A stretch of 46,126 nucleotides of DNA from a virus, in the IMG/VR virus record IMGVR_UViG_3300025297_000001; one strand, 5' to 3'. The translations under genes and the position numbers were made by a program. Positions 3,640 to 36,579 of the stretch are shown one piece after another (positions within the stretch are counted from its first letter, which is position 1; each line of letters begins with the position of its first letter). The notes below the pieces were generated by a model, which did not search any database, had not been told where the DNA came from, and saw only the letters and a program-made list of their open reading frames with translations.

Positions 3640-4246
3640 CAAATCGAAACCAGTCCGATCCGCGATCATCGAGACGATAGTCGAAATGGTGGCTGATGAA
3701 TATCTCTTCCGGGATTGTCGTTTCGCGGTATTTGACAGTTTTGTCCTTCATTCCGGTGATCTTGCCGGGGCCATTGTCAATCAGGCGGGACTTCTGAACC
3801 TTTCGATCAGTCTTGTCTGATAGACGCATGCGTTTCCAGTGCATCGCGCGGGCACCCAACGAGCATAGATCCTTCAAAGTCGCTTCCGGGTCGTCTGTAT
3901 ACTGCAGGGCGCCGTTTGAGTGCATCGCGTCTATGTCACCGAGCCAGTCGGCGGCGTCCCTGATGCTGGAGAAGAACTTAAGTTTGTCAGTGGTAAGCTC
4001 CTTGGCTCGCCGTACCATGGCGGGCGTCTCTACCACTGCCCAGCGGACGGTTGGTGACTGCGCCATCTTGTAATGCAAGCCGCATGCGCCGCCGAAATCT
4101 AGGACGGTGCCAGCATCCGCAAGTTCGCTCCACTTCTGGACTGGTTGAAACGCTACGGTCTTTTGGAAGACCACCTCCACAAGTTCAGGGTGTTCGTATC
4201 CCTTGATGGTCGCGGACGGAAGAATCCGAAGTAGCCGGTCAAGCAT
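3632..4246 (-). CDS. SAM-dependent methyltransferase, TIGR04325 (LIC12133)-like; moron
   Basis: VLDFGGACG...RWAVVETPAMV...LKFFSSI...ALQYTDDP pattern. Strong GAGGAG RBS. It is opposite in strand to both flanking operons. Confidence 0.75.
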   Translation of the reverse strand: MLDRLLRILPSATIKGYEHPELVEVVFQKTVAFQPVQKWSELADAGTVLDFGGACGLHYKMAQSPTVRWAVVETPAMVRRAKELTTDKLKFFSSIRDAADWLGDIDAMHSNGALQYTDDPEATLKDLCSLGARAMHWKRMRLSDKTDRKVQKSRLIDNGPGKITGMKDKTVKYRETTIPEEIFISHHFDYRLDDRGSDWFRFVR

Positions 4247-4422
4247 CCTTGGCTCCTCACTGGTTGTTCCCGAATTGAGCGGTGACGCTGCTGTTAGCGA
4301 CTTGAGGTTTCTTCGTCTTCATGGCGCGAACCTACCACCACAACTTACTGGCGAGCAACGCCAGATCGCAGCTTTGCACTGCAATATCTGCGGTTGAGTA
4401 ACTGATTCAAATTATTGGAGAA

Positions 4423-4929
4423 ATGTCGATGGCTGATCAGCCAAAGGTCACTTCGGCTGCGAAAAAGGCTTTAGCTGGGAGCGCGGCGGTTATCGCTCTC
4501 GCCTGCGCGTTCATCCAGCCTTGGGAAGGTCTCTGGCTCACCGCCAAGGTGGACAAGATCGGCACGGGCCGTCCGGTCACAGCCTGCTACGGCGAGACCG
4601 AGGGCGTAAAGCTCGGGCAGCGTTTCACCAAGCAGCAGTGCGACGAGATGCTGGCGAAGAAGCTGCCACGATATGCAGCGGAAATCGCGCCTTGCATCCG
4701 AGTCCCGATCTCCGAGAAGACGCGCGCTGCCTTCATCTCGTTTGCTTACAACGTCGGAAGTGCCGGGGCCTGCCGATCGACGGCATTCAAGCTTCTCAAT
4801 GCGGGTAACACGCGAGCCGCCTGCGATGCCCTGATGAACTGGAACAGGGCTCAGGGGCGGGTCGTGAAGGGCCTGACCAACCGCCGCGCAGCCGAGCGCA
4901 GGCTCTGCATCGAAGGGATCAACGGATGA
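4423..4929 (+). CDS. SAR-type endolysin, GH24 lysozyme
   Basis: N-terminal signal-anchor AGSAAVIALACAFIQPWEG, followed by GH24 motifs (YGET, FISFAYNVG, GLTNRRAAE). GGAG RBS. Confidence 0.9.
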   Translation: MSMADQPKVTSAAKKALAGSAAVIALACAFIQPWEGLWLTAKVDKIGTGRPVTACYGETEGVKLGQRFTKQQCDEMLAKKLPRYAAEIAPCIRVPISEKTRAAFISFAYNVGSAGACRSTAFKLLNAGNTRAACDALMNWNRAQGRVVKGLTNRRAAERRLCIEGING

Positions 4930-5243
4930 TCCACATTCAACATTTCCACTACCCCGACAAGGACACCGCCGAGCGCTTTTGTCGGATCGAGGAACAGCTC
5001 GGCATCATCCTCGAAAAACTGGAGACGTTCTCAATGTCCTTCGAAGACCTCAAGGCCGCCCAAGACGCTACCGACGCAAAGATCGACGCCGTGAAAGCCG
5101 ACATCCAGGCGCTGATGGACAAGCTCGCTGCTGTCCCGGCCGCCGGCATGACCCCGGAGCAGGAAGCTGCGCTGGCTGATGCCGTCGCTCATGCGCAGGC
5201 GATCAACGACAAGCTCGGCGCAATCGACGCCATGAACCCCTAA
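4926..5243 (+). CDS. hypothetical protein (coiled-coil, Ala/Asp-rich) in lysis cassette
   Basis: 105-aa ORF with an ATGA overlap onto the endolysin stop. Confidence 0.6.
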   Translation: MIHIQHFHYPDKDTAERFCRIEEQLGIILEKLETFSMSFEDLKAAQDATDAKIDAVKADIQALMDKLAAVPAAGMTPEQEAALADAVAHAQAINDKLGAIDAMNP

Positions 5244-5252
5244 GGAGACAAA

Positions 5253-5423
5253 ATGACTGGTGATCAAGTCTGGGGCGTAGTCCGCACCATCCTCGCTGCT
5301 ATCGGCGGGTACTTCACGACCAAGGGCGTCGTTGACGGCGCTTTTGTTGACGCGATCCTCGGCGGCCTCGGCACGATCTTCGTGGCTGTCTGGTCCTTCG
5401 TGTCCAAGAAACCCGCTGCGTGA
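5253..5423 (+). CDS. putative holin (56 aa, two TM segments); below the ORF-track size cut-off
   Basis: AAGGAGA RBS then ATG 5253. MTGDQVWGVVRTILAAIGGYFTTKGVVDGAFVDAILGGLGTIFVAVWSFVSKKPAA. The stop overlaps the next start (GTGA). Confidence 0.6.
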   Translation: MTGDQVWGVVRTILAAIGGYFTTKGVVDGAFVDAILGGLGTIFVAVWSFVSKKPAA

Positions 5424-5662
5424 CCGCTTCTACAATTCTCTCGATCATCTCCGCAGTCTTCACCGTCGCCCGCTGGCTGATCAGTTATGCCGATCAGCAG
5501 AAGTGGATGGCGGCGGGGGCTGCGGAGGCAGCTTTAAAAGGAATTCAGGAAGCCGATGCCGCGATCTCCACTGCCAACAAAGCTCGGGCTGATATGCGCG
5601 ATGCTATCACCCGTAATCCTGACAAGCTGCGCGACGACGACGGCTTCCAGCGTCCCGACTGA
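5420..5662 (+). CDS. putative i-spanin (N-terminal TM plus coiled-coil)
   Basis: TM segment ILSIISAVFTVARWLI followed by a charged helical region. The o-spanin ORF starts inside it in another frame. Confidence 0.6.
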   Translation: MTASTILSIISAVFTVARWLISYADQQKWMAAGAAEAALKGIQEADAAISTANKARADMRDAITRNPDKLRDDDGFQRPD

Positions 5663-5855
5663 CAGGGTTTTTTGTTCGGTTTCGCAGCCGATCTACTGGT
5701 CGAAGAACGATACCGACAAAACCATCGCGGCCATCAAGGAAAGCAACGCTGCGTGGAAAGCTATCTGCGCTGCCAAGGCTGCTAAGACTAGCGGTGTGAC
5801 CTTCAAGGATCGCTGGTTCGGGGGCGAAAAGCTCCAGGTAACGGCCTTCCGATGA
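5556..5855 (+). CDS. putative o-spanin lipoprotein (overlapped architecture)
   Basis: Signal peptide with lipobox: MPRSPLPTKLGLICAMLSPVILTS-C. It overlaps the last 107 nt of the i-spanin. Confidence 0.6.
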   Translation: MPRSPLPTKLGLICAMLSPVILTSCATTTASSVPTDRVFCSVSQPIYWSKNDTDKTIAAIKESNAAWKAICAAKAAKTSGVTFKDRWFGGEKLQVTAFR

Positions 5856-7678: not shown

Positions 7679-8194
7679 ATGCCCAGAAAACCAAAACCCC
7701 CACCGAATTTGGACCGTCTTCGAGAGTTGCTGGATTACAATCCGGACTCCGGCGTTTTTGTTTGGAAGGTAGACCGCGGAACGCGAGCAACTTGCGGCGG
7801 CGATATGTTTAGGGTCGCGGCCGGGTCGGTGGCTGGAGGGCTGACGACGAACGGTTACATCACCATAAGGATAGACCGATCGCCCTACCTCGCCCATAGG
7901 CTGGCGTGGTACTACGTTCATGGCGACTGGCCAGATGAAATCGATCACCGAGATCGCAATAGAATTAACAACGCAATCGCCAACCTCAATCCAGTCTCAC
8001 ACAAGCATAACTGCCACAATATAACCCGCGCGCCCGGCAGAAGCGGCTTTAGGGGCGTTGTTCGCAAATTCAACAAGTGGCGGGCATACATATCGAGTGA
8101 CGGGAAGAGCATGCACTTGGGATACTTTAATACTGCGGAAGAGGCGAGCGCGGCTTACCAAAGGGCCAAAGCGAAGCTTCATTATGTGCCATGA
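7679..8194 (+). CDS. HNH homing endonuclease with AP2 DNA-binding domain
   Basis: AHRLAWYYVHG...IDHRDRNRINNAIANL (HNH_3-like) plus GFRGVVRKFNKWRAYIS...HLGYFNTAEEASAAY (AP2). AT-rich upstream region. Confidence 0.85.
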   Translation: MPRKPKPPPNLDRLRELLDYNPDSGVFVWKVDRGTRATCGGDMFRVAAGSVAGGLTTNGYITIRIDRSPYLAHRLAWYYVHGDWPDEIDHRDRNRINNAIANLNPVSHKHNCHNITRAPGRSGFRGVVRKFNKWRAYISSDGKSMHLGYFNTAEEASAAYQRAKAKLHYVP

Positions 8195-8472
8195 AAATAT
8201 ATCTGGCAGGCCCGATATCGGGGCGGAAGAACTATCAAGAGAAATTTGCCGAAGCCGCCGACAAGTTGCGTGCGCAAAATCACATTGTTTTTAATCCCGC
8301 CGCAGCCAACCAAGAGGGCAGGCCACTCAACAGGATCATGGAATACCTGCTGAGCTATCTTTGCCGGGAGGCTGAAGCGATTGCACTTCTCCCCGGCTGG
8401 TGGCGTAGCGGCGGCGCTCGCATTGAGTGGATGCTGGCGCGCTACCTTCGCCTCAAGATCATTTATCTTTAA
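8191..8472 (+). CDS. DUF4406-like protein (nucleoside 2-deoxyribosyltransferase-like fold)
   Basis: MKIYLAGPISG...FNPAA...AIALLPGWWRSGGARIEW matches the DUF4406 pattern. ATGA-coupled to the HNH gene. Confidence 0.75.
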   Translation: MKIYLAGPISGRKNYQEKFAEAADKLRAQNHIVFNPAAANQEGRPLNRIMEYLLSYLCREAEAIALLPGWWRSGGARIEWMLARYLRLKIIYL

Positions 8473-9905: not shown

Positions 9906-10484
9906 CTATTGAGCGGCAAATAACGGCATCGCATTCGCGGGCGCGCCGTTCGATTGATTCCCCCACACCGCCCAACCGTCCCGAGGACCACGAGCATACA
10001 TTTCCAGTCTTGGGCCGGGGGAAAGGCGCTCGACAAGATCAAAGAACTCTTGTGGCTTCTCACTGTGCCGGCTGCGCGGCCACTCAAACAGCGTCCCTTC
10101 CGTGGCTTGCGCGTGCCTGCCACCTTGCCCGAACGGGTTGCCAGCGCGCGGACCCTTGCGGGCCACCAAGACGTGTTCTGTGTTGCAGCGGAAGCGGCCA
10201 GCCCCAAGGCCCGGCTTCTTCCACGTCAACAGAATAATCGGGTCTGCACCCCACGCGCGAGCAACGTCATAGGTCCAGTCAATATGCTGAGTGACGCCCC
10301 AGATATAGAAGTGGGCCTGCTCAGCGGCAGCGGGGCGCAGCGCGATTATCTCAGGCACCGACAGTGTATTATAGAACCGTTGCGGACCGGCCTTGTCGCT
10401 CATGCGGCTGTTCCACGTCGCGCCGAGCGTGGGTTGCCACGGCGGATCAGCTACAATCGTCCGATATAGCTGCGCAGTAAGCAT
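9906..10484 (-). CDS. MT-A70 family N6-adenine DNA methyltransferase
   Basis: Catalytic DPPW motif near the N-terminus, then HSEKP and EMYAR motifs. Confidence 0.9.
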   Translation of the reverse strand: MLTAQLYRTIVADPPWQPTLGATWNSRMSDKAGPQRFYNTLSVPEIIALRPAAAEQAHFYIWGVTQHIDWTYDVARAWGADPIILLTWKKPGLGAGRFRCNTEHVLVARKGPRAGNPFGQGGRHAQATEGTLFEWPRSRHSEKPQEFFDLVERLSPGPRLEMYARGPRDGWAVWGNQSNGAPANAMPLFAAQ

Positions 10485-10936: not shown

Positions 10937-12220
10937 TCACGTCTTTGGTCTGTTCCTGTGCTGGGTCCGCAGGGTCATGACGCCTGCAATCTTCTGGGTC
11001 GCTCCCCTGGAATAGTTCTGGGTTTGCGAGATGTTGCTGTGGGTCGCGGCCTGCCGGACGTGCTCCAGATCCGCCCCGGCGTCGGTCGCTTCAGTGATCG
11101 CACCAGCCCGGGTGTCCATATTCTTGATGGTCTTCGGAACGCCGGCCGTGTTGGCCACCTTCCGCCACTTGCGCCGGAACTCGGTATTGAAGTACGGCCA
11201 GGCATTGACCTCGCACAGGATGACCGGGCCGGAGGCGGGCAGGTGGGCGCGCTGTAGGTCGCCGGCGGGAACCTTGAACATCCGCTCCATCTCTTCCATG
11301 ACCATCGGCGCCAGCCGCAGATCGACCTCGATCTTCTTGTCCCGCTTGCTGGTGACGTGGTGCAGGACCAGGTTCTCGTCGATCTTCTCCCAGCGGAGGC
11401 CAGTGATCCACTTCTTGGTCTTCTTCTGGCCCTTGAATTTCTTCGTTTGGATGACGTCCGAAACGCCGGGCTCCTTCACGGGAACCCATTCCCCGATGAC
11501 GTCCTTTTGCCGCATGGTCAGTTCGAACTGGATAGCCTGGGCGAGGGCCATATAGGGCCAGCCCCGGTCATGGGCCGCCTTACGGATGGCGATCGCCTGC
11601 TCAGCAGACAGGGCGACCTCCCGCGGCTTGGTTCCCTTATAGCTCTGGCTGGACATGGCAGCGGCGAGGCGGGCGCATTCCTGGTCGTCCAGCATCCCGG
11701 CGCCGAACCGGAACAGGGTCCGCAGGGTCGCCACGAAGGCCCCGCCGGCCGATAGCTTCCGGCCGTTGTCGCTCCACTCTTTATACCAGGAGGGGATCAT
11801 CCGGCCGGTAATGTCGGCAAGCATGACGTCGCCAAAGCGGGCGTCGATGCGCTTGAGCAGTGCTGCCTTGCCCTGCCGGGCGTCATACCGCTTCTTGTGG
11901 AAGGCAGAATCCGGGTCCGTCTGGTACTTCTCGATCAGGTTGGACAGGGTGACGATCGGCATCAGCTTGCCGCCGGCATCGCGCTCGCGGCTCCAGATCA
12001 GCATGACCGACTGATGCTCTCGGCACTGCGAGGCGATCTCCAGCGCGTCGATATCGTCCAACTCCGCGCCTTCCCACAGGCGGACGGCGCCGGGCGCGTA
12101 GCCCTTTTTCACCAAGTCGCTTCGGGCCTGCCAATAGGCCACCCACGTTTCAGCCCGCTTGCGTTCGCGCCAGACCAGGCCCGGCGCATCCTCGACGCGG
12201 GGCGGCGTGCGTTCAGTCAT
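10937..12220 (-). CDS. int: tyrosine recombinase / phage integrase
   Basis: 427 aa. C-terminal catalytic region: MRQKDV..., MDTRAGAITEA, ATHSNISQTQNYSRG (R..H-x-x-R..Y pattern). Confidence 0.95.
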   Translation of the reverse strand: MTERTPPRVEDAPGLVWRERKRAETWVAYWQARSDLVKKGYAPGAVRLWEGAELDDIDALEIASQCREHQSVMLIWSRERDAGGKLMPIVTLSNLIEKYQTDPDSAFHKKRYDARQGKAALLKRIDARFGDVMLADITGRMIPSWYKEWSDNGRKLSAGGAFVATLRTLFRFGAGMLDDQECARLAAAMSSQSYKGTKPREVALSAEQAIAIRKAAHDRGWPYMALAQAIQFELTMRQKDVIGEWVPVKEPGVSDVIQTKKFKGQKKTKKWITGLRWEKIDENLVLHHVTSKRDKKIEVDLRLAPMVMEEMERMFKVPAGDLQRAHLPASGPVILCEVNAWPYFNTEFRRKWRKVANTAGVPKTIKNMDTRAGAITEATDAGADLEHVRQAATHSNISQTQNYSRGATQKIAGVMTLRTQHRNRPKT

Positions 12221-13330: not shown

Positions 13331-13717
13331 TCATGCCTGCACCACATCCTCAATAAACCGGAGGGCAGCGGCGAACGAGCCGACGATGGCGTGGCTGTGA
13401 TATCGGAGCCAAGGGCTAATCCGGGTGCCGTGGTCAGCGACGATAACGACGAATTTGCCGCGCTCGAACGCATAGAGGATTTCCATGCTCGTCCCGACGC
13501 TGGGCTTGTCGTAATTCACCAGGACAACATCGCAGTTCGTGATGTCGATCTTGTCGAGTTCAACGATCTGCTTGACGCTCTCGTCCTCCTTGCCGCGGTA
13601 GTCCCGCCGCATGGGATCGATGGTGTCGGGCCACTTCGTCTTGACCAGTTCGCGCCAGTCTTTGCATTCCTCGTCCGTGCAGCCGTTGATCGGACCACAG
13701 AGGTAAATCTTCGTCAT
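13331..13717 (-). CDS. nucleoside 2-deoxyribosyltransferase (NDT/Rcl)-superfamily protein
   Basis: MTKIYLCGPINGC...CDVVLVNYDKPSVGTSMEILYAFERGKFVVIV. ATGA-coupled to the upstream DpdA-like gene. Confidence 0.7.
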   Translation of the reverse strand: MTKIYLCGPINGCTDEECKDWRELVKTKWPDTIDPMRRDYRGKEDESVKQIVELDKIDITNCDVVLVNYDKPSVGTSMEILYAFERGKFVVIVADHGTRISPWLRYHSHAIVGSFAAALRFIEDVVQA

Positions 13718-14394
13718 GCTAGCTCCATTTGCTCGGGTCGCAGTTCCCACGCGGCCTTGCACTGGATAGCGTCCCAGCGGTCAGCCATGCCGCGGGGCGT
13801 GTTCTGTGGTCGATGGTGGTTCTGGGCGATGTCGGTGCTATCGACGCTCGCGAACGGCCAGCGGAGCCCCAGGCATTGCATCCCGCGCAGCATGTGAAGC
13901 CACGGCAGGCGCGAATGACGTTTGGTGACTTCGTTGAAAGCCTCATCCATCCGACGCTCCCAAGGCTCGGAGAGCACAACGGCATATTCTGCGGTTGATC
14001 CGATGCAGACCTTCGGCCATTTGTCGGTGAGCTGTAGAAGGCGGTTTAGCGGTTCGTCCATATGCCAGACCGGAGCGCCGCGGTCGCCATGCGGCCATTC
14101 CCGGATCATGGCGTCTTGCAATTGCGAACCGCCGTCGATCACGTCCGGAATGATTGCCCAGGTGGTCGGGTAGGCAAGCCACTTGTCGCACCAGGCATAG
14201 AAGCCGTCCCAGTTCGTGTCCTTGCCGGACTTCCACTTTGAGAATGCGCCATTATCAAGCATGACTGACTGGCCGATTTGGTGGCAGCGGGCTACGTCCG
14301 CAGGGTGGGCGAACGACACGCAGAAATTCCGTCCCGCCAACTCGTAGAGCGCGGTAATCGGAGTAATGGGCGTGCCGTGATAGTGCATTGTCAT
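13714..14394 (-). CDS. DpdA-like (tRNA-guanine transglycosylase superfamily) putative DNA base-exchange enzyme
   Basis: Motif order FCVSF, MLDNGAFSKW, AIIPDVIDG, VCIGST, LHMLRG, SVDSTD parallels TGT/DpdA family blocks as I recall them. No search was run. Confidence 0.55.
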   Translation of the reverse strand: MTMHYHGTPITPITALYELAGRNFCVSFAHPADVARCHQIGQSVMLDNGAFSKWKSGKDTNWDGFYAWCDKWLAYPTTWAIIPDVIDGGSQLQDAMIREWPHGDRGAPVWHMDEPLNRLLQLTDKWPKVCIGSTAEYAVVLSEPWERRMDEAFNEVTKRHSRLPWLHMLRGMQCLGLRWPFASVDSTDIAQNHHRPQNTPRGMADRWDAIQCKAAWELRPEQMELA

Positions 14395-14693
14395 TTGCTC
14401 TCACGGACACCAGAAGAAACCGGCGCAGAGAATGAGGCCGGAGCCCAATGCGTGACTTCAGCACTCCACAAATCCATGTCGCCGTCTTCGCATAGCTGCA
14501 GGATATCTATCTCCCGATAGCCCTTTAGCTCGTCCGGCTCTCCTGGCTTGCGGATGTAGGCCAGACCGCAATGGATACGCCCCCAGCTCAAGCCGCTATG
14601 ATCGCGCGATCCCTCTAGCCGAATGAATTGCCGACCCGGCTGGTTATCCCACTCGGGACGCTCGCTCACTGGCTTCCAATCAATCTCAGCCAT
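14391..14693 (-). CDS. DUF551-like protein
   Basis: Internal Met 14693 with a GAGGG RBS. MAEIDWKPVSERPEW resembles the DUF551 N-terminus. Confidence 0.6.
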   Translation of the reverse strand: MAEIDWKPVSERPEWDNQPGRQFIRLEGSRDHSGLSWGRIHCGLAYIRKPGEPDELKGYREIDILQLCEDGDMDLWSAEVTHWAPASFSAPVSSGVRESK

Positions 14694-14940: not shown

Positions 14941-15167
14941 TGTGCCTCCCGATCTTGCGAAGTGTCCGAAAGTGCCTTTTTGACTTTCGCGTTTTTCAAA
15001 ACGGATTCGGTGGTTGACTTGTCATTCAGCGGCACTCGGACAACCTTCACAGGTTCGGCACCGAACTTCGAAAAATCGTCAAGGCTGGCATAAACGCTCC
15101 CATCGGAGCGCCGATAGACGAACACCTTCGCACCGTTGACGATGTAATCGAGTTGCAGCGGCGTCAT
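14937..15167 (-). CDS. hypothetical protein
   Basis: 76-aa ORF, ATGA-coupled to the stop of MTase frame B. Confidence 0.6.
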   Translation of the reverse strand: MTPLQLDYIVNGAKVFVYRRSDGSVYASLDDFSKFGAEPVKVVRVPLNDKSTTESVLKNAKVKKALSDTSQDREAQ

Positions 15168-16050
15168 TGTGCGGCCCTCATGATTGCCCTGCCGATGATT
15201 TCCGGGATTTGCGGGACGACGGCGTTACCGAGGGTGCGCAATCGGTCCACCCGATTGGGAACCCCATCAGCCACTCGACCCACGGCGGGTTCAGTGAGCC
15301 ACTGCCGTCCGTCAAGAGCACTGCCGAGCACAAATTGTCCGGCGGTCTGCCAGCTTCTCGGCGGGCTACCGACATCCCTTGGCCCTTGTAATCTCGAGCT
15401 ACTGGCGTCGGCCATTTCTTGACCCACGTCGCCAGGCCATCCCCGCTCGTCTTGCTCAGGCCCTTCCGATTGTGATTGCCATTCACGGTCGGCGTTGGCA
15501 GCGGCGATAGAAAGTTGCGCGGCGATCTCCCCGCTGAGCGGAGCGCTATTGCCTTCGTATTTGTCGCTTCCGGCGTCGGTAGCAATGATCCAGATGCGGT
15601 CGCGCTGGTGAGGCGCACCAACGGCTGACGCCGGTATGCAATGCCACTCCGCGTCATACCCGATCTCGGCCATGCGCCCGAGTACGGCGTCCAACCCTCG
15701 ACTAAGCAGCGCTGCCACGTTCTCCAGCACCGCGCGGAATGGTCGTACCATGCGAATGGTTCGTAGGAGAGGCCAGACGAGTCCAGAACGGGCGCCGGCA
15801 AGTCCGGCACCTTCTCCAGCGAGTGAGATATCTTGACACGGAAATCCGCCTGAGATGACCGTTTCCGGACCCTGCGAAGCAAGCTGTTCAGCGCATAGAT
15901 GCCCTGGAAGTTGTATGCGTTCGGCCATCGCTCTTTCAAAACCCTTCGGCAAAATTCATTGATCTCGCAGAACGCAACCGTCTCCATGCCGGCCTTTTCC
16001 AGACCCAAGGAAAAGCCGCCGATACCCGAAAATAGATCAACTACTTTCAT
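15164..16050 (-). CDS. DNA (cytosine-5) methyltransferase, split over two overlapping frames (frameshifted or recoded)
   Basis: Frame A (from ATG 16050) carries motif I, DLFSGIGG. Frame B carries GGFPCQDIS, ENV, QRDRIW and GNAVVPQ. At least one frame change is needed near 15900-15950. Confidence 0.7.
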
Positions 16051-16178
16051 TGTCCCTCGCGGAGTGGGCGCGTGTCCGCGTACCAGCGTCCGCCCCGCCA
16101 AATTTCGATAAGCGCTTCCCAGATGGTCATCCTGGGCGCCGGCTCACCTGTCTTGCTGTTCGGAAATCCTCCGCACAT
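16047..16178 (-). CDS. possible 43-aa protein
   Basis: GAGG RBS and ATG 16178. The stop overlaps the MTase ATG (ATGA). Confidence 0.35.
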   Translation of the reverse strand: MCGGFPNSKTGEPAPRMTIWEALIEIWRGGRWYADTRPLREGQ

Positions 16179-18251: not shown

Positions 18252-18520
18252 CAGAATGGGATGTCGTCGTTCATGTCTTCATTGCGGGTGGCGGCACGAG
18301 CGGGCGCTTGCCGGGCTGCCTGCTTTTGACCTGCGCCTTCCTCTCGCTGCTTAGGTGGGAAGAGAGTGAGCCAAGCCTGGCCCTCGCTATTGCCAACCGG
18401 AAGCGCGTCCAGAACCACATTGATGCGATCCTCCTTCACGAAGGCGGCGCCGATCTTGGTGGAGCGCCACTTGCCGTCCTTGTCCTTGCGACTGGTCACA
18501 ACGTCGTATCGATCAATCAT
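18251..18520 (-). CDS. short SSB-like protein with canonical acidic DDIPF tail
   Basis: 89 aa. The C-terminus ...NEDMNDDIPF matches the SSB interaction tip. It lies directly downstream of the annealase. Confidence 0.6.
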   Translation of the reverse strand: MIDRYDVVTSRKDKDGKWRSTKIGAAFVKEDRINVVLDALPVGNSEGQAWLTLFPPKQREEGAGQKQAARQAPARAATRNEDMNDDIPF

Positions 18521-19188
18521 TCTGCTGCCTGCTGGGTTGAGGACGCGCCGATGCGGTCCAGGTTGTCATTGAGGTGCTTGCGCATGGCGACCGGCAATCC
18601 AGCGATGAGCCCCTTGTTGCTCTCGCGGAACTCGCTGGCGGTCGCCGCGTCGGTTACGAAGTTCTTGATGCCGGATGTCAGCAGCCGATACGCCTGAATG
18701 CCGCCACGAACGCCCCATTGGCATCGCGGGGCTTCCTGCTCGTAGAAGTGCTCCAGCTTGCCGATCGCCTCTTTCTCGAAAATGAAGCTCTTCCCGCGCG
18801 CCGTGATGGGCATCCAAGGAGCCTTCAGGTCGTACAGGTAGCGACCGACGCCCCAGCGGACCGCGGCGCGCTTGAAGGCATCGGAGAGGGCGCCTTTGTC
18901 GGCCTCGTAGTCCGTGTTGCCGGCGCCGTCCGCCTTCCAGATCCACTCGTTGCCGACTAAGATGCCGATATTGCAGACAATTGAGCCCTGCATGCCGTCG
19001 CTGTACTTGTTCTGCCAGCCGCCGGGACCGCAGACGGTATCGAGGCGGTCCATCACGTCGCGGGCGTCGATGTAGCAGAGCGCCATGCCGCTGGTTTTCT
19101 CGCCATTGGTAGAGCCAACGCGCCATGAGATGCTCTCGACCGGGAAGGGCTCGCAGAGGGCATCGAATATTTCTTGGGCATCAACCAT
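18517..19188 (-). CDS. Rad52/22-family single-strand annealing protein
   Basis: CYIDARDVMDRLD...GPGGWQ...KGALSDAFKRAAVRWGVGRYLY is the Rad52/Sak signature. Confidence 0.85.
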   Translation of the reverse strand: MVDAQEIFDALCEPFPVESISWRVGSTNGEKTSGMALCYIDARDVMDRLDTVCGPGGWQNKYSDGMQGSIVCNIGILVGNEWIWKADGAGNTDYEADKGALSDAFKRAAVRWGVGRYLYDLKAPWMPITARGKSFIFEKEAIGKLEHFYEQEAPRCQWGVRGGIQAYRLLTSGIKNFVTDAATASEFRESNKGLIAGLPVAMRKHLNDNLDRIGASSTQQAAE

Positions 19189-22651: not shown

Positions 22652-23137
22652 ATGCGTTTATCCATCAACGACGACTGCGACTTTGGCACAAAGGCCGAGA
22701 TCGCCACGAAACGACTGTTGGCTTTGCTCAAGGAGCACCATGATTACTCGGTGCCGTTTCAGGCCACGCGCGCCAAGCTGATTGAGATCAAGTCAGAGCC
22801 AGAAGTGGCCATTCCCATTGAGATCGGAATCCTTCCGGTCCCGACAGGGAAGCTTACAGTTGACGCGATCAAGCGCGTTGTCTGCATGCACTTCGGCATC
22901 AGCCACAACGACATGATTTCCCCGAGGCGGGATCACAAGGTCCAGCGTCCGCGCATGGTGGCGATGTACCTGGCGCGCGAGTTCACGGCACACGGGCTGC
23001 CGACGCTGGGCAAGTTCTTCCACCGCGACCACACGTCAGTCCTGCACAGCATCCGAAGGATGGATGGCATGGTCAAGGATGGTCGTGACCCGATTGTGCA
23101 GGATGCTCAGTATCTCCGGGAGGTGTTGAGCGCATGA
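22652..23137 (+). CDS. DnaA C-terminal (domain IV) DNA-binding protein
   Basis: ISPRRDHKVQRPRMVAMYLAREFT...LPTLGKFFHRDHTSVLHSIRRM matches the DnaA domain IV signature. No AAA+ domain is present. Confidence 0.8.
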   Translation: MRLSINDDCDFGTKAEIATKRLLALLKEHHDYSVPFQATRAKLIEIKSEPEVAIPIEIGILPVPTGKLTVDAIKRVVCMHFGISHNDMISPRRDHKVQRPRMVAMYLAREFTAHGLPTLGKFFHRDHTSVLHSIRRMDGMVKDGRDPIVQDAQYLREVLSA

Positions 23138-23444: not shown

Positions 23445-23881
23445 AACGCCCTGAGCAAGAAATTCACAAGGCTGTTGTCGCGCATCTCAATGCGAGAGCG
23501 GAGCCGGACGTGTTCTATTTCCACCCAGCCAATGGAGGGAAGCGGACAGCATTCGAGGGGCGGCTATTCAAGGCGCTGGGCGTCGTTGCCGGCGTTCCTG
23601 ATTTGATATTTCTCAAGCGGGGCCGGATGTACGCCTTGGAGTTAAAGGCTGCCAAGGGCCGCCCCACTGCCTTGCAGAGCGAGTGCCATGAGGCAATGCG
23701 CCGTTGCGGGGCCGTTGTTGAGGTCGCCCACTCGTTGGACGAGGCGCTGGTGACCCTCGAATATTACAACATCTTAAAGCGTTCTGTTGCGTCTGCGTCA
23801 AATCCAACAGCAGGGGAAGAAAATGACAGAGACGGGTCACAACAGCAACGCTCAACTGAAGGCTATCGTGGAGCGTATTGA
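23441..23881 (+). CDS. VRR-NUC (PD-(D/E)xK) nuclease
   Basis: GVPDLIFLKRGRMYALELKAAKGRPTALQ motif. TTGA overlap start; an alternative GTG start is at 23432. Confidence 0.75.
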   Translation: MKRPEQEIHKAVVAHLNARAEPDVFYFHPANGGKRTAFEGRLFKALGVVAGVPDLIFLKRGRMYALELKAAKGRPTALQSECHEAMRRCGAVVEVAHSLDEALVTLEYYNILKRSVASASNPTAGEENDRDGSQQQRSTEGYRGAY

Positions 23882-24071
23882 GAGCGTCAACGAGCAGATC
23901 AAGGGGCTCACTGACGACCGCGGCGACATTTTTTCGGAAGCCAAGGGCAATGGCTTCGACACTAAGGCGCTACGCAAAATAATCGCGTTGCGGAAGCTTA
24001 GTTCCGAAGATCGGGCCGCTCAGGATCAGATCCTGGAAACCTACATGCACGCATTGGGGATGCTCGCTTGA
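23823..24071 (+). CDS. DUF2312 / GapR-like nucleoid-associated protein homolog
   Basis: QLKAIVERIESVNEQIKGLTDDRGDIFSEAKGNGFDTKALRKIIALRK...YMHALGM is the DUF2312 pattern. Confidence 0.85.
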   Translation: MTETGHNSNAQLKAIVERIESVNEQIKGLTDDRGDIFSEAKGNGFDTKALRKIIALRKLSSEDRAAQDQILETYMHALGMLA

Positions 24072-29672: not shown

Positions 29673-30244
29673 TGCCCAAGATGGACACGATCTCGCTCAA
29701 GGCCCTTCTTCAGGGGCAGAAGGCTGCGGCGCTGTCGGCGAACAATGCCGCTGAGCTGTCTGCCGAGCGCGAAAAAGCCATGGATTACTACCTCGGTCGG
29801 ATGACCGATCTGCCGGCTCAGGATGGCCGCTCGAGCGCTGTTTCGTCTGACGTGGCGGATACCATTGAAGGCCTGATGCCCTCGCTGATGGACATCTTTG
29901 CGGGCTCTGATGAGGTTGTGCGGTTTGACCCGGTCGGACCTGAGGACGAAGAGGCTGCACAGCAAGAGACCGACTACGTGAACCACGTGTTCATGCAGCA
30001 AAACCCCGGCTTCATGACGCTTTATTCGTTCGTGAAGGACGCGCTTCTGCAAAAGGTCGGCATCGTCAAGGTGTGGTGGGAAGAGAGCGACCAGGAGGAG
30101 CGGGAGACGTATTACGGCCTGACCGACGTTCAGTACATGGCGATGCTGCAGGCGGTCGAGATGTCTGACGGGGCCATGAAGATCGTCGAGCACACGCAGA
30201 ACGGCGAAGAGGCTGAAGAGCCCGCCGAAGAGGCCGCCTACTGA
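29672..30244 (+). CDS. portal protein, N-terminal fragment
   Basis: EREKAMDYYLGRM...GRSSAVSSDVADTIEGLMPSLMDIF...LLQKVGIVKVWW is a typical portal N-terminus. It ends in an acidic loop at TGA 30242-30244. Confidence 0.8.
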   Translation: MPKMDTISLKALLQGQKAAALSANNAAELSAEREKAMDYYLGRMTDLPAQDGRSSAVSSDVADTIEGLMPSLMDIFAGSDEVVRFDPVGPEDEEAAQQETDYVNHVFMQQNPGFMTLYSFVKDALLQKVGIVKVWWEESDQEERETYYGLTDVQYMAMLQAVEMSDGAMKIVEHTQNGEEAEEPAEEAAY

Positions 30245-31980
30245 TGGACATGACCCCGGCTGAACAACTGGCGGCTATGCCCAAGCCGCCGCCAGAGCCG
30301 ATCACGCACGACATCACGATTGTCACCACGCGCAAGCTGGCATCGGCCAAGGTGCTAGGCGTTCCCCCGGAAGAGTTCGGGATCGAGCGCAACGCTCGTG
30401 ACATCAAGACCTGCAATTACTGCTACCATGAGGTCGTCACCAAGACCGAAACCCAGCTCATTGACGAGGGTTTCGACGCAGAACAAATTAGGGCGCTGAA
30501 CGACTATACCGGCACCAGCGACAACGAGACGATCAGTCGGGATTCGGTTCAGGAGCATACCGGCGCCGGCAACATCAACGCCGCTGCCCGCCTGGTCAAG
30601 ATTACCGAGCACTACGTTAGGATGGACTACGAAGGTAAGGGCCGTGCCTGTCTTTACATGGTCATTACGGGTGGCGATCAGGGCGAGATCCTGAAGAAGG
30701 ACGGCAAGGTATGCATCGAGCCGATCGATGTCATTCCATTCGCCTGCACGACGCCGGTCCCGATTACCCATCGCTTCTTCGGCCGGTCGATCGCGGACCT
30801 CGTTGTAGATATTCAGAAGATCAAGACTTCGCTGCTGCGGAGCGGCTTGGACAGCAAATACCTGTCCAGCGGGGCGGATGTCGAGATTGCCGAAAGCCAT
30901 GTGGGCGCCAGCACGATTGACGACCTGTTGGGGCCAAAGCGGCCGGGCAGGATCATCCGCACGAAGCAGCCTGGCGGCCTGAACTACCAAGTTGTGCCGG
31001 ACACCTCGGAAGCCTCCTTCGCGGCCATGGGGTACATGGATTCGCTGTTGGAAATGCGGACTGGCGTCAGCCGGCAGGGGCAGGGCGTCGATGCCAATGC
31101 CCTGCAGAACCAGTCAGCGACGGCTGTGGCGCAGGTGTTCAGCGCGTCCCAAGCCCGCATGAAGCTGATTGCGCGCATCATGGCCGAGGGCGTGCGCGAT
31201 ATCTTCTCGCTGCTGCACCACACCATCCGCTCGCACGGTCAGGAACAACAGACGGTTCGGCTGCGGAACAAATGGGTTGAGGTTGATCCGCGGAACTGGA
31301 AAACCCGCAACGACATGACGATCAACGTCGGCTTGGGGAACGGCGGCAAGGGCGAGCAGTTTGCGCAGATCATGGCGCTGGCCAACGTCCAGAAGGAAAT
31401 GATTGCCGGCGGCAAGACCAATCTGGTTGGCGATCAGGAGCTATACAATACCGGCTCCGAAATCGCCCGGATCATGGGCCACAAGAACGCGAACAAGTTC
31501 TTCAATGATCCCAGCGAGAAGAACCCGGACGGGTCACCAAAATATCCGCCGCCACCGCCGCCAACTCCTGAGTCCGTCCAGGTTGCACAGCTAAAGGCGC
31601 AGAGCGATCAGCAGAAGCTTGGTGTTCAGGCCCAGCTTGACCAGCAGGCGGATGAGCGTAAGGCCCAGATCGAGGCCACACAGGCGCAGGCCGATATTGC
31701 GACACAGGATCGCAAGACGCAGGCTGAGATGATCCAGTCTGAGCGGGAATTCGAGCTGAAGCGCGAACTGGCCATTCTTGAGTTCCAGTTACAGGAGCGA
31801 ATTGCCGAGCGCGAAGAGGCCCGCAAGGAGCGGGAACATCAGCAGCAGATGGCGCAGAGCGCAGAGCAGCACCGCCAGCAGATGGAAGCTGGCGTATTCA
31901 AGGTTGCGCAGGGTGCCGAGGCGCATGATCAGAAGATGGAGCAGATGAAGAGCGCTCCGAAGCCCAAGGGTGGTAAGTGA
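30244..31980 (+). CDS. portal protein, main body with C-terminal coiled-coil barrel
   Basis: VPPEEFGIERNARDI..., PITHRFFGRSIADL, RTGVSRQGQG, then a long Gln/Glu-rich helix. It is in the -1 frame relative to the N-terminal fragment. Confidence 0.9.
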   Translation: MDMTPAEQLAAMPKPPPEPITHDITIVTTRKLASAKVLGVPPEEFGIERNARDIKTCNYCYHEVVTKTETQLIDEGFDAEQIRALNDYTGTSDNETISRDSVQEHTGAGNINAAARLVKITEHYVRMDYEGKGRACLYMVITGGDQGEILKKDGKVCIEPIDVIPFACTTPVPITHRFFGRSIADLVVDIQKIKTSLLRSGLDSKYLSSGADVEIAESHVGASTIDDLLGPKRPGRIIRTKQPGGLNYQVVPDTSEASFAAMGYMDSLLEMRTGVSRQGQGVDANALQNQSATAVAQVFSASQARMKLIARIMAEGVRDIFSLLHHTIRSHGQEQQTVRLRNKWVEVDPRNWKTRNDMTINVGLGNGGKGEQFAQIMALANVQKEMIAGGKTNLVGDQELYNTGSEIARIMGHKNANKFFNDPSEKNPDGSPKYPPPPPPTPESVQVAQLKAQSDQQKLGVQAQLDQQADERKAQIEATQAQADIATQDRKTQAEMIQSEREFELKRELAILEFQLQERIAEREEARKEREHQQQMAQSAEQHRQQMEAGVFKVAQGAEAHDQKMEQMKSAPKPKGGK

Positions 31981-32768
31981 CGACAGCCTTTGTCCTAGCT
32001 TCTTCCGACCACGGCCCGTTAATCGTCAATCGTTTCGACTATAACCATACGCACACTGGCGATTTCTACGGCGTCGGCGCCCAGATCATGGAGAACGGCT
32101 GCTATGATCCACGCGACGTGCAAAGCCTCAAAGACCTGCTTATGTGCCGGCGAAATCACTTCGGCGACGGCGTTGTTGCTCTCGATGGTGGCGCCAATAT
32201 TGGCGTGCATTCTGTTGAATGGGCTCGCCTTATGCGTGGGTGGGGCTCTGTCCTCGCAGTAGAGGCGCAGGAGAGAGTTTTCTACGCATTGGCAGGTAAT
32301 CTGGCCCTTCAGAATTGCTCTAATGCACGAGCCTTATGGGCAGCGCTCGCGGACGTACCGGGCGAACTGTCCATACCCGAACCTGACTACACCCAACAGG
32401 GCAGTTTCGGGTCTTTCGAATTAAAGCCGCGTGTCGGAACCGAGTTCATCGGTCAGCCGATCGATTACGCTAAGCCGACCTCGACTGTGAAACAGATCAT
32501 GATTGATGGTCTGGGCCTTGAACGCATGGATTTGATGAAGCTGGACCTCGAGGGGATGGAAGCCGAGGCGCTGGACGGCGCGCGGGAGACCATCGAGCGT
32601 TGCAAGCCCATCCTGTTCGTGGAGACGATAAAATCAGACAGGGACGCGATATCGGCCGCGCTGCGGAATGAAGGTTATGTGGTGCTCAACAACGGGATGA
32701 ACATCCTGGCCATCCACAAGACCGACAAGACGCTGGAGAACGTCAAGACCGTCAAGGAGGCGGCGTGA
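31977..32768 (+). CDS. FkbM-family SAM-dependent methyltransferase
   Basis: VALDGGANIGVHS and MKLDLEGMEAEALDG motifs. GTGA-coupled to the portal stop. Confidence 0.85.
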   Translation: MTTAFVLASSDHGPLIVNRFDYNHTHTGDFYGVGAQIMENGCYDPRDVQSLKDLLMCRRNHFGDGVVALDGGANIGVHSVEWARLMRGWGSVLAVEAQERVFYALAGNLALQNCSNARALWAALADVPGELSIPEPDYTQQGSFGSFELKPRVGTEFIGQPIDYAKPTSTVKQIMIDGLGLERMDLMKLDLEGMEAEALDGARETIERCKPILFVETIKSDRDAISAALRNEGYVVLNNGMNILAIHKTDKTLENVKTVKEAA

Positions 32769-34096
32769 ACGTCGAGAAATACCGCGCAACAGCTAACAAG
32801 CTGATCCGCAATCCCGACGATCCGATTGCCTTAGTAGACCAGTTTGCACTGATCTCCGAAAAAAAGGACGGCGCGAGACACTTCCTGCCGCTTGCCAAGC
32901 GGGCCTATGAGCTGGCGCCGGACGAAATATCGGCGATGTTCAATTATGGATCGGCGCTTCAAAGGGCGGGTGAGTTCAAGCAGGCCAAGGATATCTACCT
33001 GCGCTGCCTGACCATCGCGCCGCAGGATTGGCGGGCTAAGGTGCTGCATCATGTGGGTGTAGCCTACCGTGGCATGGGTGAGAACGAGAAGGCCGCAGAA
33101 TACTATTTGCGCTCCTATGAGATCGAGCCCAACCCGAACATCCTGAAGGACAGGGCGCTCGCGATCCTGGCGCAGGGAAAGCTCAACGAGGGGCTCAGGG
33201 AATTCGAGGCGCGTCGGGAAGCGGCCGTCTGGAAGTTGCACGAGAGCGGCGGCCACCTGATCACACAAGCCAAGCTGCCGGCGGATGTCGTGCATTGGCA
33301 GGGTGAAGACCTGACGGGCAAAACGATCGTTGTCTACCACGAAGAGGGCTCGGGCGATTTCATCCAGTTCTGTCGATATATACCGAAACTGCGAGAGCTT
33401 GGGCCGGCCAGTGTCCTCTTATGCGGCCCAGTTCAGAACCTGCTTGAACTCGTGTCTGACAACATCGCAGTTGATGGGATTGTACCTCTCGGGGGACCAT
33501 TCGAAAGCGACTTTGTCATTGGCTCAATGTCACTGCCATGGCGGGTTGGGTGTGAAATTCACGGAGTGGACGGGAAAAGGTATTTTTCCGCAGAGCCTGC
33601 TAACATACCGCGACGGGGCAGGTTGAATGTCGGTCTGGTTTGGCGAGGAAATCCAGCATACGGGCAAGACGTTCATCGCTCCATGGCGTTCTCGGAATTT
33701 TGCCCCCTCTTCGACATACCTGGCGCGGCATTCTATTCACTACAGGCCGGACCAGCCAGTCTCGAAGTCACAAATCTCGGCTTTGACGGATTCGTTGCCA
33801 ATCTCGAACCTCTCGCGAGCACATGGCGCGATACCGCGAGATTGATCCAGGCTTTGGACGTAGTTGTGACTGTGGATACCGCAGTTGCGCATCTTGCCGG
33901 CGCGCTCGGGAAGCCAGTCTTCATTCTCATTACAAATGCCTCGGATTGGCGCTGGGACCGGAACAGCCGGAAGACGATCTGGTACGACTCGATGACGGTC
34001 ATCCGGCAGAAAAAGCAGGATGACTGGGCGCCATGCATCGCGACCGTCAGACAATACCTAAAGGACATGCTCAGTGAACGCCGACAAGCTGCTTGA
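32765..34096 (+). CDS. TPR-repeat protein fused to a GT9 (heptosyltransferase)-like glycosyltransferase domain
   Basis: N-terminal TPR-like helices. C-terminal GKTIVVYHEEGSGDFIQFCRY...VGLVWRGNP...VVTVDTAVAHLAGALGKPVFILI...DWRW pattern. Confidence 0.8.
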   Translation: MNVEKYRATANKLIRNPDDPIALVDQFALISEKKDGARHFLPLAKRAYELAPDEISAMFNYGSALQRAGEFKQAKDIYLRCLTIAPQDWRAKVLHHVGVAYRGMGENEKAAEYYLRSYEIEPNPNILKDRALAILAQGKLNEGLREFEARREAAVWKLHESGGHLITQAKLPADVVHWQGEDLTGKTIVVYHEEGSGDFIQFCRYIPKLRELGPASVLLCGPVQNLLELVSDNIAVDGIVPLGGPFESDFVIGSMSLPWRVGCEIHGVDGKRYFSAEPANIPRRGRLNVGLVWRGNPAYGQDVHRSMAFSEFCPLFDIPGAAFYSLQAGPASLEVTNLGFDGFVANLEPLASTWRDTARLIQALDVVVTVDTAVAHLAGALGKPVFILITNASDWRWDRNSRKTIWYDSMTVIRQKKQDDWAPCIATVRQYLKDMLSERRQAA

Positions 34097-35613: not shown

Positions 35614-36579
35614 ATGACTCTCGCTACCTCTGCATTCACTACGTTTTCCGCGATCGGCAACCGGGAAGACCTCTCGGACGAAATCAGCCGCATCGACCCC
35701 ACTGAAACCCCGTTCTATTCGGGCATCGAGCGCTCCAAGGCATCGGCCACCAATCATGAGTGGCAGACCCAGGCGCTGGCGGCTGCGTCCACCTCGAACG
35801 CTCAGCTCGAAGGTGACGACGGCTACGCGGCGGACGCCACCACGGCGACCGTTCGTCTCGGCAACATCTGCCAAATCTCGCGCAAGACCCCGCGCGTTAC
35901 CGGCACCCAGCAGGCGGTTGACCACGCCGGCCGCGGCTCGGAAATGGACTATCAGGTCATGCTCAAGGGCATGGAGCTGAAGCGCGATATCGAAGCCATC
36001 CTGACCGGTGCAAACCAGGCCAAGGTTACGGGCAACTCCTCGACCGCGCCGAAGCTCGCTGACGCTCTGTCGTGGATCAAGACCAACACGGACAAGGGCG
36101 GCGGCACTGGCGCTGACCCGACCGCGGCGGATGGCACTTCGCTTCGCGTTGACTCTGCGACGCAGCGGGCGTTCACGGAAAACCAGCTCAAGAACGTTCT
36201 CAAGAAGTGCTACGATCAGGGTGGTCGTCCGACCACGATCCTGATGGGCTCGTTCAACAAGCAGGCGTTCTCGATGTTCACGGGCCGGTCCACCCCGACC
36301 CAGGACGCCGCCGGCAAGAAGATCACGGCCGCAGTCGATGTCTACGTGTCCGACTTCGGCACCCTGAAGGCGATCCCCGACCTGTTCATGCGGACCAAGG
36401 ATGTCCTCGTGCTCCAGATGGACAAGTGGGCCTATGCCCCGCTGCCGGGCCGTAACTTCCTGTCCTACGATCTGGCGAAGACGGGCGACTCCGACGCACG
36501 CACGGTCCTCTCTCAGTACACCCTGGAATCCAGGAACGAGAAGGCCAGCGGCGGCGTGTTCGACCTGACCAGCTCGTAA
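35614..36579 (+). CDS. major capsid protein (HK97 fold, SU10/DUF5309-like)
   Basis: SAIGNREDLSDEISRIDPTETPF...HEWQTQAL N-terminal signature. 321 aa, followed by a terminator. Confidence 0.9.
   Translation: MTLATSAFTTFSAIGNREDLSDEISRIDPTETPFYSGIERSKASATNHEWQTQALAAASTSNAQLEGDDGYAADATTATVRLGNICQISRKTPRVTGTQQAVDHAGRGSEMDYQVMLKGMELKRDIEAILTGANQAKVTGNSSTAPKLADALSWIKTNTDKGGGTGADPTAADGTSLRVDSATQRAFTENQLKNVLKKCYDQGGRPTTILMGSFNKQAFSMFTGRSTPTQDAAGKKITAAVDVYVSDFGTLKAIPDLFMRTKDVLVLQMDKWAYAPLPGRNFLSYDLAKTGDSDARTVLSQYTLESRNEKASGGVFDLTSS

Follow-up and report, generated by a model that had tools for sequence, protein, structure and literature searches.

How does a phage that encodes a DpdA-type DNA-guanine transglycosylase, and none of the enzymes that make its substrate base, obtain that base, and what is the small nucleoside deoxyribosyltransferase (NDT)-like protein encoded directly behind it? 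The question arises from IMG/VR virus record IMGVR_UViG_3300025297_000001, a stretch of 46,126 nucleotides (nt) analysed whole and called the window below, on whose minus strand a dpdA gene runs into an NDT-like gene. Modification of DNA with 7-deazaguanines is a major phage counter to restriction, and hosts have answered with defenses aimed at such DNA, among them GrwAB (PMC12137116) and the Dag glycosylases (bioRxiv 2025.10.29.685425). As published, the pathway comprises base synthesis (FolE, QueD, QueE, and QueC), optional tailoring enzymes, the transporter YhhQ, and DpdA; complete phage clusters for 7-cyano-7-deazaguanine (preQ0) or archaeosine (G+) encode all four synthesis enzymes with DpdA, some with an amidotransferase in addition and some without; none of the four was found in the window. 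That some phages carry DpdA alone and run on host or salvaged preQ0 is already known (PMC6884629), as is the association with YhhQ. What is new here is a conserved pairing of dpdA with the NDT-like gene, which involves the following features:

13331..13717, minus strand: NDT-like gene (128 amino acids, ATG start), NDT superfamily, apparently of DNPH1/Rcl type; phrog_19940
13714..14394, minus strand: dpdA (226 amino acids), a short phage DpdA of the 'DpdA-only' type, assigned to the tRNA-guanine transglycosylase (TGT) superfamily
13714..13717, minus strand: ATGA overlap of the dpdA stop with the NDT-like start, read from the sequence (GC-ATGA-CG)
14391..14693, minus strand: upstream open reading frame (ORF) of unassigned function, part of the same leftward early operon, 100 amino acids on an identical contig in ENA, with no Pfam match; context only

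An earlier note on this DNA had called both ORFs at these positions and had read in the 226-residue protein the blocks FCVSF, MLDNGAFSKW, AIIPDVIDG, VCIGST, LHMLRG, and SVDSTD, and in the 128-residue protein KIYLCGP...VGTSMEILYAFERGKFVV; all of these are present, the blocks in the order given. The same note pointed to the ATGA overlap between the two genes, which it called coupled. The overlap is real, and GGAG lies 5 nt upstream of the NDT-like ATG, but the stop of the upstream ORF also overlaps the dpdA start by 4 nt, as at other junctions of this leftward operon. Because such overlaps recur at neighboring junctions, the ATGA signals co-translation in an operon and no specific link between dpdA and its partner, and we reject it as proof of specific coupling.

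The pairing recurs well beyond the window. We collected NDT-like loci from IMG/VR, metagenomes, and genomes and scored them with local hidden Markov models (HMMs) for DpdA, the YhhQ/VUT transporter, and the preQ0 enzymes. Across this collection dpdA adjoins 35 of 80 unique NDT-like genes; among the 33 unique genes with at least 1 kb on both flanks, 17 (52%) show a same-strand dpdA no more than 800 nt away, with dpdA preceding the NDT-like gene in 12 and following it in five. The partner DpdAs range from one 98% identical to the window's down to a divergent form scoring 24 bits against the local HMM; this most divergent DpdA follows QueE, in a QueE-dpdA-NDT arrangement (loci L054-56), and the order dpdA-NDT-VUT occurs in at least four distinct contigs, the VUT gene being confirmed as PF02592. 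Linked NDT-like genes are scattered over the family tree and interspersed with unlinked ones, and with both gene orders represented we reject a single-clade founder effect as the source of the association. Chance cannot explain the linkage either, since the DpdA family is present in just 0.2% of GenBank phage records (window DpdA matches in 103 of 50,697). The earlier note had proposed looking for co-occurrence of the two families in other phages, and the synteny is indeed conserved across divergent ones. None of the outcomes that the note had named as refuting came up, and its interpretation is supported, with hypermodification of the DNA and layered anti-restriction to be read as hypotheses.

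Cultured phages show the association in another form. Their distant homologues of the NDT-like protein, 30-45% identical and matched to the window protein at E 5e-33 through a joint HMM, belong to the same phrog_19940 and sit within 7-deazaguanine clusters: QueE-QueC-QueD-NDT-FolE..DpdA in Aminobacter phage Erebus, QueE-hypothetical-NDT-QueC-QueD-FolE-..-DpdA in Rhizobium phage RHph_X3_2, and QueC-FolE-DpdA-three small ORFs-NDT in Edwardsiella phage ZHS. HRTV-29, a DpdA-only archaeal virus (PMC8651126), encodes an NDT homologue, and the co-localization probably extends to an archaeal virus. As the earlier note had supposed, the pairing appears to stand outside the described 7-deazaguanine pathways: in the literature open to our search, no paper connects DpdA, or the 7-deazaguanine clusters of phages, with a protein of the NDT family or of DNPH1 type. 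The nearest published statement is that undetected deoxyribosyltransferases cannot be excluded (PMC6884629), and a 2026 note describes PfkB-PF05014 fusions beside an unrelated QueC-like clade.

By sequence comparison, the 226-residue protein is a member of the phage DpdA family. It falls in phrog_887 ('queuine tRNA-ribosyltransferase') with E 1.5e-49 in PHROGs, and by tblastn it shares ~40% identity with the DpdA encoded by Pantoea phage MED16 (E 2e-38) and also 40% with that of Salmonella phage SEN1; its GenBank matches are for the most part hypothetical proteins from temperate phages of Vibrio, Salmonella, Escherichia, and Klebsiella. Profile alignment (hhalign) of the window's family with the 266-300-residue DpdAs of Erebus, RHph_X3_2, and ZHS gives a probability of 96.4% (E 1.4e-9) and pairs LDNGAFS with LDSGAFS, VCIGST with ITIGGM, and ASVDSTD with YSVDSST. 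These three proteins and the other DpdAs whose genes are linked to NDT-like genes all belong to phrog_887. An AlphaFold2 (AF2) model of the window DpdA, with a predicted local distance difference test score (pLDDT) of 74, is a TIM-like beta/alpha barrel whose significant Foldseek matches in BFVD are phage queuine tRNA-ribosyltransferase models (probability 1.00, TM 0.55-0.61, 13-21% identity).

The catalytic apparatus of this DpdA appears intact. D84, H111, H167, and D185 do not vary in a diverse alignment of 60 sequences, where D47, G49, A50, and G132 reach at least 90% conservation. The candidate active-site residues are D47 (LDNGAF), D84 (IPDVIDG), H167 (LHMLRG), and D185 (SVDSTD). Bacterial DpdA exchanges guanine by double displacement with two Asp residues, and its aspartates D95, D130, and D256 have been assigned to general acid/base catalysis, base recognition, and nucleophilic attack (PMC10164549). 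The spacing D47-x3-F51 in the window protein, as read from the sequence, equals that of the bacterial general acid D95 and F99 (PMC10164549), and with this D-x3-F motif shared the same chemistry would be expected as in the bacterial Dpd system (DpdA, DpdB, and DpdC with restriction genes, as in Salmonella Montevideo). Unlike bacterial DpdA, the window protein, at 226 residues, is without the large Ins8/Zn region; its C-terminal tail has 41 residues after SVDSTD and only one Cys. Among the window ORFs no Pfam match suggested a DpdB-type ATPase or DpdC, for which no dedicated models were run.

The closest described relatives are the singleton DpdAs of MED16 (gp38) and of the Salmonella phages SEN1, BTP1, and 7-11 (Hutinet 2019; Simoliunas 2021), which like the window's are short members of phrog_887 in phages without preQ0 genes, in an early-region location of temperate/lambdoid type. 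In MED16 DpdA is the sole deazaguanine gene, dADG, the 2'-deoxynucleoside of 7-amido-7-deazaguanine, replaces ~0.13% of G, and little restriction protection results (PMC8306585); phage 7-11, also with DpdA only, carries dADG in its DNA (PMC6884629). Hutinet et al. counted 76 phages with DpdA and without preQ0 genes, for which host or imported preQ0 was proposed (PMC6884629). A host-derived base and low-level dADG or 2'-deoxy-preQ0 (dPreQ0) would accordingly be expected in singleton-DpdA phages and in the window phage alike, but beside dpdA in MED16, SEN1, BTP1, and 7-11 no DNPH1-like partner has been described.

Genes for preQ0 synthesis are missing from the window, as the earlier note had stated. 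Pfam scans of nearly all its called ORFs found no QueC, QueD, QueE, FolE, or VUT; a six-frame search for QueC/D/E and FolE was likewise empty, with small HMMs (2-3 seeds from three cultured phages) of limited sensitivity, and a six-frame search of the whole window with the VUT HMM found none. In a phage without preQ0 genes, the base that DpdA inserts must come from the host. Elsewhere, the DpdA family is tightly tied to supply genes: at 67 unique close homologue loci in IMG/VR, the gene adjoining dpdA, upstream or downstream, encodes a YhhQ/VUT transporter in 34 (51%), QueD in six, and QueE in two. A 2019 survey found YhhQ to correlate with no phage group. The family also includes fusions of DpdA to QueD (P0248), to a VUT/YhhQ-like membrane N-terminus (P0360), and to a Dam-like methyltransferase (P0354), some of which may be gene-calling artifacts. 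The window's own DpdA clade comes from phages with alphaproteobacteria-like hosts and usually pairs with YhhQ/VUT; the window phage is among the minority without such a transporter beside dpdA, and the place is taken by the NDT-like gene.

A separate variation is seen in IMGVR_UViG_3300050821_009037 (loci L005 / L142), which holds the closest DpdA in IMG/VR (90% identity). It carries two dpdA paralogues ~750 nt apart, at positions 3553-4242 and 4983-5681 of the locus, the second ~50% identical to the window's, and no NDT-like gene or VUT was found at this locus.

The partner is where our reading qualifies the earlier one. The 128-residue protein matches PF05014 (E 3.8e-11; 43.6 bits against a cut-off of 28.8 bits), and its AF2 model (pLDDT 90.4, predicted TM score 0.86) finds in the PDB, by Foldseek, NDT (7o62), DNPH1 (8rpt), MilB (4ohb), BcmB, and rat Rcl (2klh) with TM 0.69-0.78 and probability 1.00. 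Its earlier placement in the NDT/Rcl superfamily therefore stands, with the caveat that by its residues and predicted fold the protein looks like a nucleotide N-glycosidase of the DNPH1/Rcl type and not a classical nucleoside deoxyribosyltransferase. HMM alignment to DNPH1 sets D55, S73, E79, and S101 on D80, S98, E104, and S128, with weak E-values (0.4-0.9) that the fold match supports; among 65 homologues Y5, D55, E79, and S101 never vary and S73 reaches at least 90% conservation. The catalytic triad of DNPH1, with which Y5/D55/E79 align, is Y24/D80/E104, and the 5'-phosphate is coordinated by S98 and S128' (PMC10603095).

Two positions bear on the substrate. S73 occupies the place of Asp92 in Lactobacillus NDT, so that the 5'-OH binder of nucleoside-type enzymes is replaced by Ser. 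The S101 position is that of Asn123, the other 5'-OH binder, in classical NDT (L. leichmannii numbering). Together these substitutions predict nucleotide rather than nucleoside substrates. The triad Tyr, which is Phe in ribo-specific MilB and Tyr in deoxy-specific enzymes (PMC10603095), suggests a 2'-deoxy substrate. For the same reason, we rejected ribonucleotides derived from tRNA (the monophosphates of queuosine and preQ1, QMP and preQ1-MP) as candidates. Since it keeps the triad and both phosphate serines, the partner probably cleaves a 2'-deoxynucleoside 5'-monophosphate (dNMP), or transfers its deoxyribose 5-phosphate (dR5P) as DmtZ does.

Comparison with the known members of the superfamily places the partner more closely. 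With DNPH1/Rcl it shares the fold (TM 0.69-0.74), the Tyr/Asp/Glu triad, both phosphate serines, and a similar size, although identity is 16-20% and DNPH1 is a eukaryotic enzyme that sanitizes the pool of 5-hydroxymethyl-2'-deoxyuridine monophosphate; the window family carries invariant motifs of its own (GPINGCTDEECKDWR, DPMRRDYRG, and SPWLRYHS), and no counterpart of DNPH1 E55/H56 was identified in it. Classical NDT (Lactobacillus NDT/PDT) shares PF05014 and the covalent-Glu chemistry but differs at Asp92; the best Foldseek match is a small NDT from Desulfotalea psychrophila (7o62, TM 0.77). Four motifs delimit the family sharply: YLCGPINGCTDEECKDWR, DPMRRDYRG, LVNYDKPSVGTSMEILYA, and SPWLRYHS. 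The family, phrog_19940 ('unknown function'), forms 1,877 clusters at 90% identity in a large protein collection, is almost wholly phage-borne (a scan of 185,579 species genomes gave a single locus), and has a mean column identity of 59-67%.

A further comparison is with DmtZ of Z-genome phages (Gordonia phage Ghobes, AOE44404.1), a member of the NDT family that hydrolyses dAMP and can also pass dR5P on to the Z base (NAR 2026, PMC12884076). Both DmtZ and the window partner are phage NDT-superfamily proteins encoded beside a key gene of a base-substitution pathway. DmtZ is specific for deoxynucleoside 5'-monophosphates, its catalytic E103 aligns with E79 of the window protein, and neither has the Asp/Asn 5'-OH binders. 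The likeness is bounded: the two are 27% identical over 49 residues only (hhalign probability 19%), and the triad is Tyr/Asn/Glu in DmtZ and Tyr/Asp/Glu in the partner. DmtZ, moreover, acts with PurZ0 and DutZ on adenine and 2-aminoadenine before replication, whereas the window partner accompanies DpdA, a post-replicative exchanger. Pfam scans of the window ORFs found no PurA/PurZ or Dut family member, and Ghobes and Wayne are absent from the tblastn matches of the partner.

We therefore favor, with moderate confidence, a reading of the locus as a salvage-type 7-deazaguanine DNA-modification module in which the partner is an accessory enzyme that joins the dNMP and free-base pools. DpdA would swap guanine in replicated phage DNA for a 7-deazaguanine, either preQ0 or a derivative such as 7-amido-7-deazaguanine (ADG), the base being made by the host or salvaged; we infer this exchange step from MED16, 7-11, and bacterial DpdA. 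The partner would bind a dNMP, form a covalent intermediate between deoxyribose 5-phosphate and Glu79, and release the base. Its likeliest reaction would be to free or recycle base from guanine-type or 7-deazaguanine-type dNMPs; alternatively, it could move deoxyribose 5-phosphate between guanine and a 7-deazaguanine base in the manner of DmtZ, whose precedent makes such a transfer (dGMP + preQ0 -> dPreQ0-MP) credible. A role in the base pool is favored because the partner replaces a transporter or base-synthesis gene beside dpdA here and elsewhere sits amid base-synthesis genes. What the sequences themselves show is the family of each protein, the conservation of catalytic residues in both, the lack of preQ0 genes, and the recurring gene linkage; that the phage DNA is modified at all, which base it would carry, and which substrate and direction the partner's reaction would have we infer.

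A conserved, catalytically intact DNPH1-like enzyme that co-localizes with dpdA in both salvage-type and full-synthesis clusters has so far had no assigned role. Were it to supply, recycle, or activate the base at the level of nucleotides, this could explain where DpdA-only phages find their substrate. Such an activity, if true, would be new to the NDT superfamily and would provide a second case, after DmtZ, of this fold rewiring dNMP pools for non-canonical DNA, and the cultured phages Erebus, RHph_X3_2, and ZHS make the hypothesis directly testable. A bolder version, which we consider possible but rather doubtful, is that the partner founds a family of 7-deazaguanine-specific phosphodeoxyribosyltransferases/N-glycosidases, the guanine-side counterpart of DmtZ, that draws on dGMP and on free preQ0 or a similar base to make or recycle 7-deaza-dGMP. 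Were this true, a nucleotide-level branch, pre-replicative or salvage, would run beside the post-replicative exchange by DpdA and would contradict the purely post-replicative view of these modifications.

Several observations weigh against the module as we read it, and the first set concerns the distance of the window DpdA from cellular enzymes. The earlier note had placed the protein in the TGT/DpdA superfamily; membership in the phage DpdA family is borne out by phrog_887, MED16, and hhalign, whereas no direct match to a solved structure of TGT or DpdA turned up. Foldseek searches of the PDB with the pLDDT-74 model returned generic TIM barrels only (TM ~0.5, E >=4e-3), the top 50 containing neither TGT nor DpdA; PDB sequence and profile searches with the single protein and with shallow and diverse alignments gave only noise; and hhalign of three DpdA alignments against E. 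coli TGT was not significant, its best local match setting LDNGAFS on TDSGGFQ. The Zn-binding subdomain that TGT and bacterial DpdA possess is absent from the protein. Neither Pfam (TGT, PF01702) nor NCBIfam matches it, but annotated long phage DpdAs also miss the Pfam TGT model, and E. coli TGT itself matches no PHROG, so that phrog_887 is unusable as a bridge to the cellular enzyme. With no direct match to a solved TGT or bacterial DpdA, the link to TGT rests on published HHpred results for homologues, such as that of MED16 DpdA to Thermotoga maritima TGT at 99.2% (PMC8306585).

A second set concerns the partner and its link to dpdA. Roughly half of the NDT-like genes show no dpdA in the surrounding 4-6 kb, and these unlinked genes adjoin other genes of nucleotide metabolism, for example those for a dNMP kinase, a YspA-SLOG protein, DUF4406, or a second NDT together with a dCMP deaminase. 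Viewed from the other side, an NDT-like gene is present at just one of the 67 close DpdA loci, which means that DpdA does not need it, and no NDT-DpdA fusion was found among the long representatives. The residue equivalences of the partner come from weak alignments (E 0.25-0.9) together with the fold match rather than from a superposition. Glycosidic bonds of 7-deazapurines are poor substrates for enzymes that depend on N7 protonation, and a source of 7-deaza-dNMPs in an infected cell would have to be supposed.

Two loci illustrate the settings in which unlinked NDT-like genes occur. In IMGVR_UViG_3300033075_000649 (loci L017 / L035; 3729-5372 in L017), from an AT-rich phage without a nearby dpdA, the NDT-like gene follows genes for a DruA-like (Druantia) protein and for a SLOG protein related to YspA/cpYpsA. 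On a 181-kb contig (L019 / L037), it is flanked by a second PF05014 protein on one side and a dCMP deaminase on the other, and a nearby ORF resembles Nampt, as judged by eye only.

The main rival to the salvage module is a generic function in the dNMP pool, in which the partner degrades or sanitizes host dNMPs and owes its nearness to dpdA to their shared place in the variable nucleotide/DNA-modification part of early operons. The half of NDT-like genes that stand away from dpdA beside other nucleotide-metabolism genes would follow naturally, as would the very high conservation of the protein across phages of very different GC content, which befits an enzyme with a universal substrate; most phages' DpdA works without a partner, and the ATGA overlap is generic in the operon. 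What this account does not readily accommodate is the frequency of the pairing, since adjacency in 52% of cases is far above what the rarity of this DpdA family would lead one to expect, and the adjacency persists through reversal of gene order, through divergence of DpdA to ~24 bits, and through clusters as varied as those with VUT, QueE, or full preQ0 synthesis. We consider a partner without any specific link to DpdA unlikely.

Next comes a pre-replicative route like that of DmtZ, in which the partner would move dR5P from dGMP or another dNMP to free preQ0 or another 7-deazaguanine base, kinases and polymerase would carry the modified dNMP into DNA, and DpdA and the partner would be parallel consumers of one base pool. 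DmtZ itself, a phage NDT-family enzyme, both hydrolyses dNMP and transfers dR5P to a non-canonical base, and the window partner has its catalytic core (E79/E103) and features that fit a phosphate-bearing substrate; homologues adjoin QueD, QueC, and FolE within the base-synthesis clusters of Erebus and RHph_X3_2, and in Bradyrhizobium phage BDU-MI-1 a homologue adjoins a dNMP kinase. The similarity to DmtZ is nevertheless confined to the short aligned stretch described above, DNPH1 and Rcl are hydrolases, and the Pfam-scanned ORFs of the window include no dNMP/dNDP kinase or dedicated polymerase. A 2023 survey, moreover, found all known 7-deazaguanine DNA modifications to be post-replicative, with DpdA always present (PMC10516641). 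A route of this kind seems to us an unlikely one as well, slightly behind the generic function.

That the DpdA-like protein inserts no 7-deazaguanine at all, being inactive, tRNA-acting, or specific for another base, with the pair serving some other role such as counter-defense in which the NDT/SLOG-like fold depletes nucleotides or signaling molecules, is quite improbable: mycobacteriophage Orion has a singleton DpdA and no 7-deazaguanine (PMC8306585), the MED16 modification is sparse and hardly protective, and the window protein gave no similarity to a solved TGT and has no Zn subdomain, but among 60 diverse homologues its Asp residues of catalytic type are invariant, its family is tightly linked and fused to the preQ0 transporter YhhQ/VUT and to QueD and linked to QueE, and its homologues are the sole deazaguanine genes of the dADG-carrying phages 7-11 and MED16.

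The genomic setting agrees with a temperate element. The window corresponds to ENA metagenome contig ERZ27251939 k141_426483 (46,140 nt), with 100% identity across the 6.7 kb compared and matching gene calls. No close relative at the DNA level turned up when 12 kb of the window was compared by megablast with the GenBank phages. The other features of the element are these:

8191..8472, plus strand: DUF4406 protein, a second NDT-clan protein, 93 amino acids (PF14359, E 2.1e-19; phrog_355, E 1e-22)
9906..10484, minus strand: MT-A70 family DNA adenine methyltransferase (PF05063, E 7e-12)
10937..12220, minus strand: tyrosine integrase (PF00589), where the leftward gene block of dpdA ends
15164..16101, minus strand: C5-cytosine DNA methyltransferase in two overlapping frames (PF00145)
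18517..19188: Rad52-type recombinase (Pfam scan)
22652..23137, plus strand: DnaA_C-like protein (DnaA C-terminal DNA-binding domain), replication region
23787..24071, plus strand: GapR-like nucleoid-associated protein, replication region
30244..31980: SU10-type portal (Pfam scan)
35614..36579: SU10-type capsid protein (Pfam scan)

With the tyrosine integrase as marker, the element is a temperate phage or prophage, and GapR together with best matches to Rhizobium phages suggests an alphaproteobacterial host. No promoter-like or terminator-like site was found on the minus strand from 16.4 to 12.4 kb.

The DUF4406, MT-A70, and C5-methyltransferase genes that the earlier note had listed are all confirmed by Pfam matches, the last split over two frames. 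The DUF4406 gene, for which no link to dpdA was shown, serves as context only; it lies far from dpdA and adjoins an HNH-AP2 gene. In another phage (L021 / L045), however, a DUF4406 gene at 4230-4580 lies ~400 nt upstream of a DNPH1-like gene, so that the two small NDT-clan families co-occur more than once. In the C5-methyltransferase, frame A (15178..16101) holds motif I, a region like a target recognition domain, and EWLMGFPIGWT (PF00145 positions 1-44), and frame B (15164..15952) holds motifs IV-VIII and GNAVVP (PF00145 positions 64-167); the same nucleotides translate as FPIGWTDCA or as VPNRVDRLR, depending on the frame, and the ENA contig has the identical sequence. Programmed frameshifting, an error of assembly, or a pseudogene with a frameshift could each account for the split. 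Further along, on the plus strand at 31977..34096, between the SU10-type portal and the scaffold and capsid genes, lie genes for an FkbM-type methyltransferase (PF05050, E 6e-15) and for a protein with tetratricopeptide repeats that resembles glycosyltransferase family 9, an unusual place for such enzymes that may hint at modification of virion proteins.

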